Shown one piece after another: positions 54,703 to 60,700 of a stretch of DNA of 64,000 nucleotides. The stretch lies in assembly GCF_054482595.1 (NCBI RefSeq), contig NZ_CM137008.1; one strand, written 5' to 3'. The position numbers were made by a program. Numbering within the stretch: position 1 is the first letter of the stretch; each line of letters starts with the position of its first letter.

Positions 54703-57700
54703 TCATCCTCTCCGGATAAGGCACGGGCGTAATCTGCCAGTGTTTTCTTGTTGGTTGCTGCACCATCCTCTTCCTGCAGGCTCGCCAGCAGCGCACTGAG
54801 ATCCAGCTGCCAGCGGGAAATACTGATGCGCAGCGCCGCCAGCGCATAAACGAAGCAGTCGAGCGCCTCATTGCGTCGCTTTTTGCTGTCCCACAGTATT
54901 TTTTTCCTGCCATCCACCCATTTTTCGACCTGCTCTTCAGCCGTCAGCTGCTGCGCTTCGGTCAGATCAAAAATATCCGGGTTATTCGGGAAGTGAACGG
55001 CACCGGGAAGCGGTTCATCCCCTTCCGGCGTCAGTGTGAAGCGGTTATAAATCTGCTCTTTCGCGGTATCCGTACCGATTTCGGTAAGGTAAACCCCGTT
55101 TTTGTTTCGCTTACGTGGCATGCTGGCCACCGGCTTGCCGTAAACGGATGCCCCTTTAATGGGGATCACCCGGAACAGCCCATGCTTTTTCGAGCGTTCA
55201 TACACAATGGTCGGGTCAATCCCGCCAATATCCCAGCAGATACGGGATACCGACATTTCTGCACCATTCCGGCGGGTATAGGTTTTATTGATGGCCTCAT
55301 CCACACGCAGCAGCGTCTGTTCATCGTCGTGGCGGCCCATAATAATCTGCCGGTCAATCAGCCAGCTTTCCTCACCCGGCCCCCATCCCCATACGCGCAT
55401 TTCGTAGCGGTCCAGCTGGGAGTCGATACCGGCGGTCAGGTAAGCCACACGGTCAGGAACGGGCGCTGAATAATGCTCTTTCCGCTCCGCCATCACCTCA
55501 GCATCCGGACGTTCGCCAATTTTCGCTTCCCATGTCTCACCGAGCGTGGTGTTCACGAAGGTTTTACGTTTTCCCGTATCCCCTTTCGTCTTCATCCAGT
55601 CTTTGACAATCTGCACCCAGGTGGTGAACGGGCTGTACGCCGTCCAGATGTGAAAGGTCACACTGTCCGGCGGCTCAATCTCTTCACCGGATGACGAAAA
55701 CCAGAGAATGCCATCACGGGTCCAGATCCCGGTCTTTTCGCAGATATAACGGGCATCAGTAAAGTCCAGCTCCTGCTGGCGGATGACGCAGGCATTATGC
55801 TCGCAGAGATAAAACACGCTGGAGGGGTCATCCGGCGTCCATTTGAGGCCAAACGGCGTCTCTTTGTCGCCAAATTTAAGATACTGCTCCTCCCCGCAGT
55901 GCGGGCAGGCAACATGAAAACGCATAAAATGCGGGGATTCACTGGCTGCACGCTCAATCTGGCAGGTGCCTCTCACTTTGGGCGTGGAGCCACGGATGGA
56001 CTTTGGCCAGACCGAGCCTTCAATACGTTTGTCGCCAAGGAACGTCGGAGAGCCTTCCTGTTCAATATCCTCATCAAAGGCAGCAAGTTCATCATAACCC
56101 GCCACATCCACCGACTTTTCACGGTAGTTTTTTGCCGCTTTACCGCCCAGGCACCAGAAGCCACGACCATTGGAAAAACGCTTCATAGTGAGCGTGTTAT
56201 CCCGGTGCTTTTTGCCATACCACGGAGCCAGCGCCAGCAGCGACGGAATATCGCGGATGGTCGGCTCAACGTGGGTTTTCATAAAGTTCTCGGCATCACC
56301 ATCCGTCGGCAACCAGATAAGGGTGTTGCGCTGCTTATGCTCTATAAAGTAGGCATAAACACCCAGCAGCATTTTGGAATAACCGACACGGGCAGACTTC
56401 ACCACATTCACCTCACGGATGTAGTCGCTGCCCATCGCATTCATGATGGCCCGCTGAAAGGGCAGTGTTTCCCAGCGCCCTTCCTGGTATGCGGATTCTT
56501 TTGGGAGATAGTAATTGGCATCCGCCCATTCAACGGCGGTCTGTGGCTCCGGCCTGAACAGTGAGCGAAGCCCGGCGCGGACAAAATGCCGCAGCCTGTT
56601 AACCTGACTGTTCGATATATTCACTCAGCAACCCCGGTATCAGTTCATCCAGCGCGGCTGCTTTGTTCATGGCTTTGATGATATCCCGTTTCAGGAAATC
56701 AACATGTCGGTTTTCCAGTTCCGGAAAACGCCGCTGCACCGACAGGGGGATCCCGTCGAGAATACTGGCAATTTCACCTGCGATCCGCGACAGCACGAAA
56801 GTACAGAATGCGGTTTCCACCACTTCAGCGGAGTCTCTGGCATTTTTCAGCTCCTGTGCGTCGGCCTGCGCACGCGTAAGTCGATGGCGTTCGTACTCAA
56901 TAGTCCCTGGCTGGAGATCTGTCTCGCTGGCCTGCCGCAGTTCTTCAACTTCCCGGCGCAGCTTTTCGTTCTCAATTTCAGCATCCCTTTCGGCATACCA
57001 TTTTATGACGGCGGCAGAGTCATAAAGCACCTCATTACCCTTGCCACCGCCTCGCAGAACGGGCATTCCCTGTTCCTGCCAGTTCTGAATGGTACGGATA
57101 CTCGCACCGAAAATGTCAGCCAGCTGCTTTTTGTTGACTTCCATTGTTCATTCCACGGACAAAAACAGAGAAAGGAAACGACAGAGGCCAAAAAGCTCGC
57201 TTTCAGCACCTGTCGTTTCCTTTCTTTTCAGAGGGTATTTTAAATAAAAACATTAAGTTATGACGAAGAAGAACGGAAACGCCTTAAACCGGAAAATTTT
57301 CATAAATAGCGAAAACCCGCGAGGTCGCCGCCCCGTAACCTGTCGGATCGCCGGAAAGGACCCGCAAAATGATAATAATTATCATCTACATGTCACAACG
57401 TGCATCTACGCAATCAAACCACGTCAAATAATCAATTATGACGCAGATATCGTATTAATTGATCTGCATCAACTTAACGTAAAAACAACTTCAGACAATA
57501 CAAATCAGCGACACTGAATACGGGACAACCTCATGTCAACGAAGAACAGAACCCGCAGAACAACAACCCGCAACATCCGCTTTCCTAACCAAATGATTGA
57601 ACAAATTAACATCGCTCTTGATCAAAAAGGGTCCGGGAATTTCTCAGCCTGGGTCATTGAAGCCTGCCGCCGGAGACTGTGCTCAGAAAAAAGAGTTTCT

Positions 57701-60700
57701 CCTGAAGCAAACAAAGAAAAGAGTGACATTACTGAATTGCTCAGAAAACAGATCAGACCAGATTGAAGCAATTTAGATAATCGTGCAGACTACGCCCCTC
57801 ATATCACATGGAAGGTACTACAATGGCTCAGGTTGCCATTTTTAAACAAATATTCGATAAAGTGCGAAATAATTTAAACTATCACTGGTTTTATTCTGAA
57901 CTAAAACGTCACAATGTCTCACATTACATTTACTATTTAGCTACAGAGAATATTCATCTTGTTCTTGAAAACGATAATACGGTTTTAATAAAAGGACAGG
58001 GTAAGGTTGTAAATGTAAGATTTTCAAAAAATAAATGCCTTATAGAAGCCACCTTAAAAGGATTCAAATCAGGAGAGTTATCATTTTACGAATACAGGAA
58101 AAATCTTGCTACAGCAGGGGTTTTCAGATGGATTACAAATATCCACGAAAACAAAAGGTATTACTATACCTTTGATAATTCATTACTCTTTACTGAGAAC
58201 ATTCAGAACACTACACAAATATTTCCGCACTAAATCATAACGTCCGGTTTCTTCCGTGCCAGAACCGGACTCGCTGGCATGATGAAATATGTGTACCCGG
58301 TAACCCCGGTGTGCATCGTTTTTGATTATTCCCGCACACTCGCGCAGAAGGAGTTCCCCGTCGGGCTACGGTCTCTGTTAATACGGGAATACGGCGACGA
58401 TACAGCGCATGATGTGTCAGGCTTGAATACCTTTATCCTTTAAAAGGGATATCAGTTAAGTTATCCCGTGTAGGGTATAAACCATTATCAAAGCCACTCT
58501 GTAGGAAGTGGCTTTTGTAATGGCAATAAAAAGCCCCGCGAATGCGAGGCTAAATCCTGGTATTTGTAATGACTGGCTCTTATCTCAACGCAGCCCCTTA
58601 CCGCGCGCAAAATGCTCAATATCAAGCATCAGCAATGAGATGTTTAATCTGGATTCACTCCAGAAGTGAGCACCACCCTGTCTACAGAGCCAGATGTGAA
58701 GGATGATGAGTAAAATTATCGCTATCATCGAAGGCATTGCGTCCTGATGTATTCCTGAAGCGTTCTCAGTGCTGTTTGGTCGCGGATAATTCCGTCCCGG
58801 ATACCGAGAACGTTTCGTCCAGCAACTGGAGAGAGTTCGACGGTGGCATCATTGCCCATGCCGGAGGCGCTGGAGGTTTCAGCTGAGGATGGCACAGGGC
58901 ATTTTCCTTTGACGAGCACCCGACCACCATTATCAAGCTTGCGCCGAAGAGCATCATTTTCAGCTTTCGCATCAGCTAACTCCTTCGTGTATTTATCATC
59001 GAGTGCATCAGCATCACGCTGGCGCTGCTGCATGTGAGTAATGGTGGCGTTCGCCTTCTCCAGTTCACTGGCCTTGTTATCGCGCTGTTCTTTGTAGGCG
59101 ATTGCATTATCACGGTAATGATTAACAGCCCATGACAGGCAGACGATGATGCAGATAACCAGAGCGGAGATAATCGCGGTTACCCTGCTCATTGTTGCCC
59201 CCACAAACAGACCTCACGCTCAATCTCACGACGAGTCATCAGGCCTTTCCATTGCTTACCGCCAGCGTATGCCCAGCGACGTAGCTGGTCACATGCGCCC
59301 TTGATATCGCCCTGGTTTATTTTGCGAAGAAGAGTAGATGTTCTGAAATTGCCTGCGCCCACGTTATAGACGAACGAGTAAAGAGCGCCGCGCGTTGTTT
59401 CCGGTATATCGACTTTGATGTACGGGTTAATTTGTCTGGCTACCGTGGCAAGGTCTTTATTCAGGAGGGCTTTGCATTCTGCTTCGGTATACGTTTTACC
59501 GGGAATGATGTCTTTTCCTGTATGCCCGTGACATACAGTCCATACGCCAACGATATCTTTGTATGGTATGTAGCTGACACCTTCCAGACCATCGTTACCA
59601 CTTGGCCCAGTGATTAACACAGATGCTATAGCAATAGCCCCGCCACTTATCGCCGCTATTACGCTATTTCGTAGTGCCGGTGACATTGCCATTCAATCTG
59701 TCCTCGCGCTCTTTGCGCTTGTAGTACCAGTTGATGCCAAATGTGCCGACAGTACAAAGAATACCAATGATGACAGCCCAGTCATTCAGGGAGAGAATGC
59801 CACCCATCGCAGTCAGTCCTCCGAAGCTGTAACTGAACCATTCTCTGATTTTGTCCATACGGTACATGCTCTACCCCTTCATTGAGGGGATTTGCTCTAT
59901 TTAATTAGGAATAAGGTCGATTACTGATAGAACAAATCCAGGCTACTGTATTTAGTAATCAGATTTGTTCGTGACCGATATGCACGGGCAAAACGGCAGG
60001 AGGTTGTTAGCGCAGCCTCTTGCCACCCGCTTTCACGAAGGTCATATGTAGAAGGCCGCAGCATAACTATCACTGATGAGTTCAGGATAACCAGTGGCTA
60101 CGGCTCAGTTTGGGTTGTGCTGTTGCTGGGCGGCGATGACGCCTGTACGCATTTGGTGATCCGGTTCTGCTTCCGGCATTCGCTTAATTCAGCACAAAAG
60201 GAAGAGCGCTAGTCTACCTCTATCGATTAACGGGCTTGTGGGGCAGTATCGCCGATTCACCTAACGCTCTTCCCTTTGTGATTGTAACGCAAAAAGCCCC
60301 GAGCTATTAACTCAGGGCTTTATTTAACGAGTGCATTTATCCATCGTTGAGTCAAATTTACCCAATTTTATTCAATAAGTCAATATCATGCCGTTAATAT
60401 GTTGCCATCCGTGGCAATCATGCTGCTAACGTGTGACCGCATTCAAAATATTATCTGCGATTGACTCTTCTTTGTGGCATTGCACCACCAGAGCGTCATA
60501 CAGCGGCTTAACAGTGCGTGACCAGGTGGGTTGGGTAAGGTTTGGGATTAGCATCGTCACAGCGCGATATGCTGCGCTTGCTGGCATCCTTGAATAGCCG
60601 ACGCCTTTGCATCTTCCGCACTCTTTCTCGACAACTCTCCCCCACTGCTCTGTTTTGGCTATATCAACCGCACGACCTGTACCGTGGCAATCTCTGCATC

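Follow-up and report, generated by a model that had tools for sequence, protein, structure and literature searches.

What are the two genes that lie between cos and the lysis genes of this lambda-family prophage, reading against its late operon, and do they act together? They occur in a 64,000-nucleotide stretch of contig NZ_CM137008.1, the whole of which was analyzed and is called the window hereafter. The left edge of their slot is cosN (57322..57333), whose 12 nucleotides, AGGTCGCCGCCC, have one exact match in the window. This sequence is the reverse complement of the established lambda cos sequence, GGGCGGCGACCT. The late operon is on the - strand: TerL (54699-56624) and the terminase small subunit Nu1 (56599-57144) flank the slot on the left, the Rz spanin (58725-59204), with Rz1 (58766-58972), flanks it on the right, and lysozyme, holin and Q are encoded on that strand as well. 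As an earlier note had described, the slot contains two ORFs on the opposite (+) strand, at 57533-57766 and 57808-58233. Beyond the second ORF, the interval to Rz (58234-58724) holds only a conserved element of ~105 nucleotides, a 50-aa ORF and a terminator-like hairpin.

The first gene, identified by ORF calling and HMM search, is ynfO-like (57533..57766, + strand) and encodes a basic protein of 77 aa (pI 10.55; 17 Lys plus Arg residues). The protein belongs to the DUF3950 family (Pfam PF13132: E 4.9e-21, 74.8 bits, cut-off 25) and to the NCBIfam family YlcI_YnfO_N (NF041551: E 6.4e-9, 35.7 bits, cut-off 30), and PGAP labels the identical protein "YlcI/YnfO family protein". Its residues 1-50 form a conserved core, and residues 51-77 a variable C-terminal tail. 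In the family at large, the N-terminal half is almost invariant, and the tails are swapped among at least five types.

The second gene is ydfO-like, as ORF calling and HMM search again indicate. Its product matches the full Pfam profile of DUF1398 (PF07166: E 3.3e-43, 147 bits, cut-off 22, profile positions 1-119 of 119), so that both family assignments proposed in the earlier note, DUF3950/YlcI and DUF1398/YbcV-YdfO, were borne out by HMM searches. The AT-rich ORF that had been proposed to encode a 141-aa protein is present, with 31% GC compared with 52% for the window, but its start was probably placed too early. Translation likely begins at ATG 57823, giving a gene at 57823..58233 (+ strand) and a protein of 136 aa, rather than at the alternative ATG 57808: GGAAGG at 57810-57815 precedes the later ATG, PGAP and most family members start there, and no Shine-Dalgarno sequence was seen upstream of ATG 57808. 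The protein has the same fold as the solved family member YdfO (PDB 2hh8: E 1.4e-69, ~76% identity), namely, a pseudo-duplicated ααβββ arrangement, for which a search for structural neighbours returned none that is informative and no known toxin. This allele represents a distinct lineage, whose identity at the nucleotide level is ~81% with ydfO and 85% with ybcV.

Comparison of alleles indicates that both proteins are under purifying selection. Over the first 50 codons of DUF3950, the dN/dS ratio is 0.09 compared with phage BP-4795, where the upstream DNA of the two is unrelated, and 0.30 for the DUF1398 gene compared with the lambda allele. Because these values were obtained despite saturating or substantial synonymous change (pS 0.50 and 0.35, respectively), we conclude that selection acts on both products. 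Together with the HMM matches and the match to PDB 2hh8, these ratios establish that both ORFs are real genes and not chance reading frames.

The pair is also very common, and it is a kind of prophage accessory gene that is already known. In 1013 E. coli genomes, 80% or more of the 1.6-kb block is found, and 4186 E. coli genomes contain DUF3950 matches, at 9864 places in all. The recurrence at this position in related prophages that had been anticipated was found: lambda, HK629, Kati, Qin and DLP12 share the cos-to-Rz slot and the orientation against late transcription, and the genes have the same position in 71 of 71 IMG/VR loci of this allele. Both genes are intact in the defective prophages Qin and DLP12, which have lost tail or terminase genes or retain them as pseudogenes.

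The two genes are nevertheless separable. Among phage records, 155 contain DUF3950, compared with 43 for DUF1398. For example, BP-4795 carries DUF3950 without DUF1398 at its lysis-packaging junction, next to a different packaging module (HNH, TerS, TerL). In two satellite-like elements, the DUF3950 ORF runs opposite to a short repressor-like gene and a primase gene set, and the closest gene annotated as terminase is several kilobases away. No gene is called upstream of distant DUF1398 genes, other family members reside in non-phage islands next to regulators, and the core-genome paralogue ycgX is detected in most E. coli genomes that gave a match (5385 in total). Because the two genes are often found apart, an obligate two-gene system is unlikely. 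Similarly, their separability and their division by an opposite-strand gene in lambda and DLP12 imply that a regulator-target relationship is not required. An apparent natural fusion of the two proteins (P0013) was rejected as an artefact of gene calling, the codon TGA having been translated as Trp, and therefore provides no Rosetta-stone link between them.

The earlier note also proposed that the pair has its own AT-rich upstream region. The leader of the DUF3950 gene (57335..57532, + strand), which is its putative promoter region, is moderately AT-rich (39% GC), but a consensus scan of its + strand revealed no sigma-70-like promoter. This leader is cosQ-side right-end DNA that is 94% identical to lambda, and it contains a palindrome, ATGATAAT-A-ATTATCAT (57369-57385), and an imperfect palindrome, CACGTCAAATAAT-CA-ATTATGACGC (57420-57444). 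The 8-mer CACGTCAA is also found 54-66 nucleotides upstream of the DUF3950 ORFs in the two satellite-like elements, which are distant from this prophage; this recurrence is a weak lead, since a match also arose in 36 of 3000 shuffles and the satellites do not count as independent cases. No intrinsic terminator for the two-gene unit was detected.

Documented cases of regulated expression come only from the K-12 homologues. A PdhR box is reported to lie between ynfO and ydfO in Qin, expression of ybcV and ybcW depends on PdhR, and ybcV mRNA is down 10-fold in a pdhR mutant (PMC7660256). At 57747..57763 (+ strand), within the last ynfO codons and 60 nucleotides before the DUF1398 start, we found a homologue of this box, AACAGATCAGACCAGAT, with one mismatch; by homology with the Qin site, it may function as a PdhR box here. 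Also, an ionic liquid induces ydfO ~100-fold, and overexpressed ydfO reportedly increases oxidative-stress resistance (PMC4077768); ybcV rises more than 1000-fold when T4 MotB perturbs H-NS repression (PMC7827196). As to what the genes do, our literature search agreed with the earlier description of them as functionally uncharacterized, in that no functional characterization of either gene was found.

Directly downstream of the DUF1398 gene is the conserved element of ~105 nucleotides (58302..58409, - strand), a candidate hairpin in the sense of the late transcript. In bor-carrying phages, a variant of this element overlaps the predicted bor promoter. The element adjoins the gene pair and is at most a candidate part of it; we find the hairpin more intriguing than the gene pair itself.

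The DUF3950 protein had been suggested to have an N-terminus resembling ribbon-helix-helix proteins, and we conclude that its core, residues 1-50, is probably such a domain. In an hhalign comparison, the Arc repressor aligns with DUF3950 without gaps at an offset of 3 (pairwise E 0.0078, probability 5%). The AF2 monomer (pLDDT 66 overall, 75-83 in the core) has an extended segment at residues 13-18 and helices at 19-32 and 37-54. At the hhalign offset, these helices coincide with helices A and B of Arc, as these are usually placed. The register and the predicted helices thus agree with the suggestion, whereas database searches did not reach significance: the sole match in a PDB profile search is a CopG ribbon-helix-helix protein at E 0.89, a Foldseek search of the monomer model against PDB gave no matches, and a Pfam search recovered no ribbon-helix-helix family at E <= 10. 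Over the same segment, weak matches to a PHROG HicB-like antitoxin (E 0.007) and to MobA (E 0.08) were obtained. Like the Arc, Mnt and CopG repressors, the DUF3950 protein is small and has a basic N-terminal arm, followed by the strand motif N-[IL]-R-[FW]-P, a helix, a G-x-x turn and a second helix. The sequence similarity to these repressors is below statistical significance, and DNA binding of the DUF3950 protein is predicted.

With moderate confidence, we propose that the pair is a "moron" cassette of the Qin ynfO-ydfO type, encoding a ribbon-helix-helix-type regulator and a host-directed DUF1398 effector that are not needed for lytic growth. The cassette occupies the right end of lambda-family genomes, from the lysis genes to cos, is read against late transcription and would be expressed in lysogens. 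The DUF3950 protein would be a small DNA-binding dimer of the Arc/CopG type, in which a basic arm at the N-terminus precedes the β-strand RNIRFP, two helices and a variable tail, and it would act as a transcriptional regulator that probably represses its own unit. The DUF1398 gene presumably belongs to the same transcription unit here, because the gap between the genes is 56 nucleotides and contains no terminator. Its product is a soluble, basic, non-enzymatic α/β protein that probably functions by binding a macromolecule of the host and changes the physiology of the lysogen, such as its stress tolerance, without being part of the virion or the envelope. The AT-rich DUF1398 DNA would probably be mostly silenced by H-NS and turned on under particular conditions. 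Consistent with an accessory role, the DUF1398 homologue of lambda is dispensable in lytic growth: CRISPRi knockdown of lambdap78 gave an EOP of 1.9, and the gene was scored nonessential in a screen whose assayed genes did not include the DUF3950 ORF (PMC10695390).

We also considered the possibility that the pair is a toxin-antitoxin or abortive-infection system that guards the lysogen against other phages, with the DUF3950 protein as a ribbon-helix-helix antitoxin and autorepressor whose tail neutralizes a DUF1398 toxin. Type II toxin-antitoxin operons (ParD, CopG-like, or with the HicB C-terminal domain) have a like gene order and like sizes, in that a small ribbon-helix-helix-like protein comes first and here a protein of ~136 aa is encoded 56 nucleotides downstream; they also share an N-terminal domain of this type with a variable tail, and the DUF3950 tail is disordered or variable. 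The weak HicB-like match points in the same direction, as does the location in a slot that is a known site of accessory genes (bor in lambda, gnsB in Qin). Furthermore, ydfO is without transposon insertions in TraDIS, yet can be deleted (PMC5821084). However, PADLOC gave no match for DUF3950 and for DUF1398 only a chance-level match to Csx23 (E 0.025), the DUF1398 fold is unlike any known toxin, and the genes are very often apart or divided by an opposite-strand gene. Also, the phenotypes reported for plasmid overexpression of ydfO and ybcV concern stress resistance and glycogen, not killing. We therefore regard a defence system as unlikely.

A slightly less probable explanation is that the DUF3950 protein is a small DNA-binding factor of the phage cycle that is tied to cos, with a role at or close to the packaging site in packaging termination, end protection or transcription across cos, and that DUF1398 is an unrelated passenger. 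The DUF3950 gene is within ~200 bp of cosN both here and in lambda, and in BP-4795 it keeps to the lysis-packaging junction despite the different packaging module. It is far commoner than DUF1398 in phage records, and its almost invariant N-terminal half, predicted to contact DNA, is under strong purifying selection. Against such a role, the gene points away from cos and runs counter to late transcription, it is intact in Qin and DLP12, which no longer package DNA, and in the satellite-like elements it is beside regulatory and replication genes, far from terminase. In the lambda reference record, no annotation lies under the DUF3950 match, and no requirement for the region holding this ORF is known from lambda vectors or minimal cos fragments.

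Two further readings are improbable to the same degree. In one, the DUF3950 protein is a conserved, Arc-like junction regulator of lambdoid phages and satellites, encoded beside the packaging site, that would control transcription into or out of the cos-lysis junction, possibly with the ~105-nucleotide hairpin, and would couple prophage state to the expression of cargo such as DUF1398 and bor; if true, lambda would have an unrecognized layer of regulation at its right end. In the other, the genes are functionless hitch-hikers that are kept by a recombination-prone junction between conserved modules. The slot is indeed a mosaic in which ybcW, bor and gnsB are variably present, DUF3950 proteins have exchanged tails, and the conserved element in the flank could act as a recombination linker. 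However, genes without function are not expected from the low dN/dS ratios at such synonymous divergence, or from intact ORFs in thousands of genomes, old defective prophages included. Finally, database labels would make the DUF1398 protein a virion head or envelope protein (PHROG 413, "head protein"; "putative envelope protein" or "head protein" in lambda-family records), which is hardly credible: these labels seem to have been carried over from earlier annotation rather than derived from experiment, the gene is AT-rich, outside the head cluster and on the opposite strand, its homologue is dispensable for lambda plaque formation (PMC10695390), family members include those in non-phage islands and ycgX, and the protein is soluble, as is YdfO in its NMR structure (2hh8), with a GRAVY of -0.41 and no signal peptide, hydrophobic segment or membrane segment detected.

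The moron cassette that we favour can be compared with the lambda morons bor and lom, which are likewise found in late-region gaps, have atypical base composition and are dispensable in lytic growth; bor has the same orientation as the genes here. In this prophage, the 31% GC of the DUF1398 ORF stands against the 52% of the window, and the content of the slot differs among lambda, Qin, BP-4795 and Min27. Unlike bor and lom, which encode envelope proteins with known phenotypes, neither gene here encodes an exported product, and no promoter/terminator pair was found for the unit.

The earlier note placed the pair in the slot where lambda carries bor. This substitution is contradicted by lambda and DLP12 themselves, which have homologues of both genes in the cos-to-Rz slot, on the anti-late strand as here, in addition to bor. 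From cos to Rz, they carry DUF3950, then ybcW on the late strand, DUF1398 and bor. They differ from this locus in that an insert of ~560 bp carrying ybcW separates the two genes, YlcI has a shorter tail (64 aa), and ybcV is followed by bor. Neither bor nor ybcW was found anywhere in the window. The closest arrangement is that of Qin, in which nohA (a Nu1 homologue) is on the late strand and is followed by ynfO and ydfO on the opposite strand. The order and orientation are the same, the gap between the genes is 57 nucleotides in Qin and 56 here, and Qin YnfO shares the 77-aa tail type of the DUF3950 protein. Qin differs in having gnsB-ynfN-ynfR-ymcF-cspI between ydfO and Rz, genes that are missing here. 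The layout of this locus is thus of the compact Qin ynfO-ydfO type, without bor and ybcW.

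Two plus-strand ORFs lie between cosN (57322-57333) and Rz in the lambda-like prophage of the window. The late operon of this prophage is on the minus strand and includes Q (60426-61049), the holin and lysozyme genes, Rz/Rz1 (58725-59204), Nu1 (56599-57144) and TerL (54699-56624). The first plus-strand ORF (57533-57766) encodes a protein of 77 amino acids with a pI of 10.55, and the second (57808-58233) encodes 141 amino acids when read from its upstream start. GC content is 44% in the first gene, 31% in the second and 52% in the window. The earlier note is right on coordinates, strands, sizes and composition, and HMM searches also agree with the YlcI-like and YbcV/YdfO-like assignments made there. 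The first protein matched DUF3950 in Pfam (E 4.9e-21) and YlcI_YnfO_N in NCBIfam (E 6.4e-9), and the second matched DUF1398 across the whole domain (E 3.3e-43). In E. coli EC5502, which carries identical DNA, PGAP names the first gene "ynfO: YlcI/YnfO family protein" and the second "DUF1398 domain-containing protein".

We consider it rather probable that the pair is a regulator-and-effector cassette for lysogen physiology, with each inferred step less certain than the overall picture. The DUF3950 product would be a small Arc-like regulator, and the DUF1398 product a soluble effector. Both genes would be expressed apart from the late operon and largely silenced by H-NS, and both products would serve lysogen physiology rather than the phage cycle.

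The ORF from 57808 noted earlier is present, but its product is probably 136 amino acids long rather than 141, because the PGAP start in EC5502 is the equivalent of 57823, a GGAAGG sequence (57810-57815) precedes that start, and 136 amino acids is the length of most family members. No Shine-Dalgarno sequence was found before 57808. A promoter scan detected no plus-strand promoter upstream of 57533, and in a terminator scan the hairpin after the DUF1398 stop lacked a U-tract (z = -0.45). No terminator-like feature was found between the two ORFs, and co-transcription is therefore plausible.

The DUF3950 protein is likely, though not proven, to have a ribbon-helix-helix (RHH) fold. Residues 1-50 are nearly invariant among alleles, and the C-terminal tails are of at least five unrelated types. 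Alignment of Arc repressor with DUF3950 by hhalign is ungapped at an offset of 3, with NLRWP against NIRFP and the glycine turn matched up. The AlphaFold model has an extended segment at 13-18 and helices at 19-32 and 37-54; under this offset, these helices coincide with the helix positions of Arc. When the family profile was compared with all PDB sequences, the only match was a CopG-family RHH protein (E 0.89); weak HicB-like and MobA matches cover the same segment. A Foldseek search of the PDB with the low-confidence monomer model returned no matches. An Arc-like DNA-binding regulator can reasonably be proposed for the family.

Two distant, intact DUF3950 ORFs, with E-values of 4e-16 and 6e-12, score above the cut-off of the NCBIfam model and are ~36-38% identical to the window protein. 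Both are unannotated and on the plus strand of satellite-like elements, one from a Klebsiella-type prophage (vB_KppS-Ant, 3001-3204 of the comparison locus) and one from Pasteurella (Pmp7, ~3001-3180). In these elements, the DUF3950 ORF points the other way from the primase gene set and a short repressor-like gene, and by this arrangement it holds the position of a regulatory switch. These two ORFs lie antisense to long annotated CDSs, but a true overlap of genes is improbable. The N-terminal extensions of those CDSs are probably annotation over-calls, because only their C-terminal ~65 amino acids match a real repressor family. A search for a shared operator identified the 8-mer CACGTCAA in three DUF3950 upstream regions. 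In the window, it is half of an imperfect palindrome (57419-57445) that precedes the DUF3950 start by ~100 nt, and in the satellite-like elements it is 54-66 nt upstream of the ORF (~2946 in vB_KppS-Ant, ~2934 in Pmp7). The 8-mer is a possible operator half-site, but statistically the case is weak: such sharing was matched in 36 of 3000 shuffles, for sequences that are not independent of one another.

A toxin-antitoxin-like or defence pair is a less likely interpretation, and the association of the two genes bears on it. Comparison with the PADLOC HMMs of defence systems gave no meaningful match. The ynfO gene lies 60-61 nt upstream in 71 of 71 IMG/VR loci of the window's DUF1398 allele that have enough upstream sequence; these loci are near-identical to one another and hence are not independent evidence. 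Gene content, however, shows that either gene can occur without the other. Of the records in the phage collection, 155 contain DUF3950 and 43 contain DUF1398. Phage BP-4795, whose packaging module differs (HNH, TerS, TerL), has DUF3950 but not DUF1398 at this lysis-packaging junction; its DUF3950 gene has a good Shine-Dalgarno sequence and a terminator of its own. Upstream of distant DUF1398 members (26-44% identity), no gene is called; a GerE-family regulator is near one such locus, and a Trans_reg_C regulator and a YqeJ_C protein are near another. The distant DUF1398 locus L006 was considered as yqeK, but it had no match in E. coli genomes, and we do not claim that identity. A 233-amino-acid metagenome protein (P0013) that joins DUF3950 to DUF1398 was evaluated as a natural fusion, or Rosetta-stone link, and rejected as a gene-calling artefact. 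The 761 members of its cluster are ordinary 136-amino-acid or partial DUF1398 proteins, and its DNA (L215, 1274-1975) contains an in-frame TGA, which gene callers for metagenomes translated as Trp under a TGA=Trp code. In the common variant with 61-nt spacing, both ORFs share a frame with one TGA between them.

Also less likely is a cos-linked role for DUF3950, the gene nearer to cosN. Between the window and BP-4795 alleles, codons 1-50 have a pS of 0.50, differences at only 7% of the non-synonymous sites and a dN/dS of 0.09, and the 200 nt upstream are unrelated (27% identity). Because the codons are kept and the upstream DNA is not, it is the protein that is conserved, rather than cos-linked DNA. 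For DUF1398, dN/dS between the window and lambda alleles is 0.30. On these comparisons, both genes are real, and we regard functionless hitch-hikers as a less likely explanation than the proposed cassette.

A structural role for the DUF1398 protein is less likely, even though PHROG 413 and many GenBank/RefSeq phage records (e.g. NC_001416, NC_019711, PP925833) label it "head protein" or "putative envelope protein"; location, sequence, structure and essentiality data give these labels no support, and they are not credible because the protein is soluble, has no signal peptide or hydrophobic segment, and can be knocked down with plating intact (CRISPRi of the lambda homologue lambdap78, EOP 1.9; PMC10695390). 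The protein is basic and consists of two tandem alpha-alpha-beta-beta-beta units. Its family is small: a search among 1.84 billion yielded 196 representatives at E <= 0.001.

Published data on homologues are available for expression. The ydfO gene is induced ~100-fold by ionic liquid in a growth-phase-dependent manner, and its overexpression is cited as increasing resistance to oxidative stress (PMC4077768). Expression of ybcV and ybcW rises >1000-fold when T4 MotB perturbs H-NS repression (PMC7827196). In a pdhR mutant, ybcV mRNA drops 10-fold, and a PdhR site has been mapped between ynfO and ydfO (PMC7660256); a 17-mer at 57747-57763 is homologous to this Qin site with one mismatch and is a predicted site. 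No insertions in ydfO were recovered by TraDIS (PMC5821084), which we, rather than the authors of that study, suspect to reflect occlusion of AT-rich DNA by nucleoid proteins.

Directly downstream of the pair is a conserved element of ~105 nt (58302-58409, core pattern at 58325) that merits follow-up of its own. It is present in 432 phage records, mostly without annotation in lambdoid phages, and is at the lysis-packaging junction in every locus examined: lambda, BP-4795, Min27 (a 933W-like Stx phage), phi191 and Salmonella SPN3UB. Its positions in four comparison loci are ~4200-4325 (L001), 3465-3580 (L088), 1501-1608 (L091) and 172-279 (L092). Among 69 unique variants, the consensus hairpin has a predicted energy of -18.6 kcal/mol on the late-transcript (minus) strand versus -5.5 kcal/mol on the plus strand, with 98.8% of cells paired and compensatory changes in 5 of 23 pairs. 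The pairing exceeds 500 of 500 column shuffles and every slid control; the single-sequence z-score is only -1.1. In bor-carrying phages, the 3' half of the element variant is the predicted bor promoter. The element could be a recombination linker or a structured RNA within the late mRNA. Rfam has no entry for it, and all matches in an Rfam scan of 56.5-60.5 kb were sub-threshold.

Other features were observed nearby on the minus strand. Just right of cosN, a promoter-like site (57369-57396; GTGACA-16-TATCAT, 10/12 matches) is directed to cos/Nu1 and overlaps the palindrome ATGATAAT-A-ATTATCAT. Downstream of Rz is a terminator-like hairpin with a T-run (58532-58551; AGCCTCGCATTCGCGGGGCT TTTTATT), located inside a match to the Hfq-binding sRNA STnc560 (58462-58653) that scores 20.5 bits, below the Rfam gathering score of 55. 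A hydrophobic 50-amino-acid ORF (58585-58737) overlaps the Rz stop and fills the space of lambda's bor; PGAP calls it "hypothetical", and it matches PHROG 11822, of unknown function (E 1.8e-36).

The earlier description of recurrent, functionally uncharacterised accessory genes is correct: the cassette is already well known and widely annotated. Of 5426 complete E. coli genomes, 1013 carry the 1.6-kb block with a coverage of >=80%. DUF3950 DNA occurs at 9864 places in 4186 E. coli genomes, and DUF1398 DNA in 5385, a count that takes in the chromosomal paralogue ycgX. As it stands, the locus is of little importance, since its genes are routinely annotated and are found in most E. coli genomes; all that it adds is one more allele and a compact arrangement. 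Its modest value is for annotation, where calling DUF1398 a "head protein" or an "envelope protein" looks unfounded. Solving the function of this very common pair would account for part of the "y-ome" of E. coli and give a role to a conserved segment of lambda that has never had one assigned.

The pair had been placed in the slot where lambda carries bor, but lambda does not have bor in its stead: it carries homologues of both genes as well as bor. Lambda's own DUF3950 (YlcI-like) ORF, of 64 amino acids (~48139-48303), adjoins the right cohesive end. NC_001416 / J02459 have no annotated feature beneath the match, an omission that could be tidied, and for this reason the genome-wide CRISPRi essentiality screen probably did not target the ORF. 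Lambda (KT232076) and DLP12 share the gene order Nu1, cos, DUF3950 (+), a ybcW-like gene (late strand), DUF1398 (+), bor (+) and Rz. A tblastn search of the whole window found neither bor nor ybcW, and homology to lambda runs ~175 bp beyond the DUF1398 stop, into the bor-upstream region, and then stops. In K-12 Qin, by contrast with lambda and DLP12, nohA is followed by ynfO and ydfO directly side by side. The same adjacency is seen in the window, and so, by gene order, its layout is of the compact Qin type.
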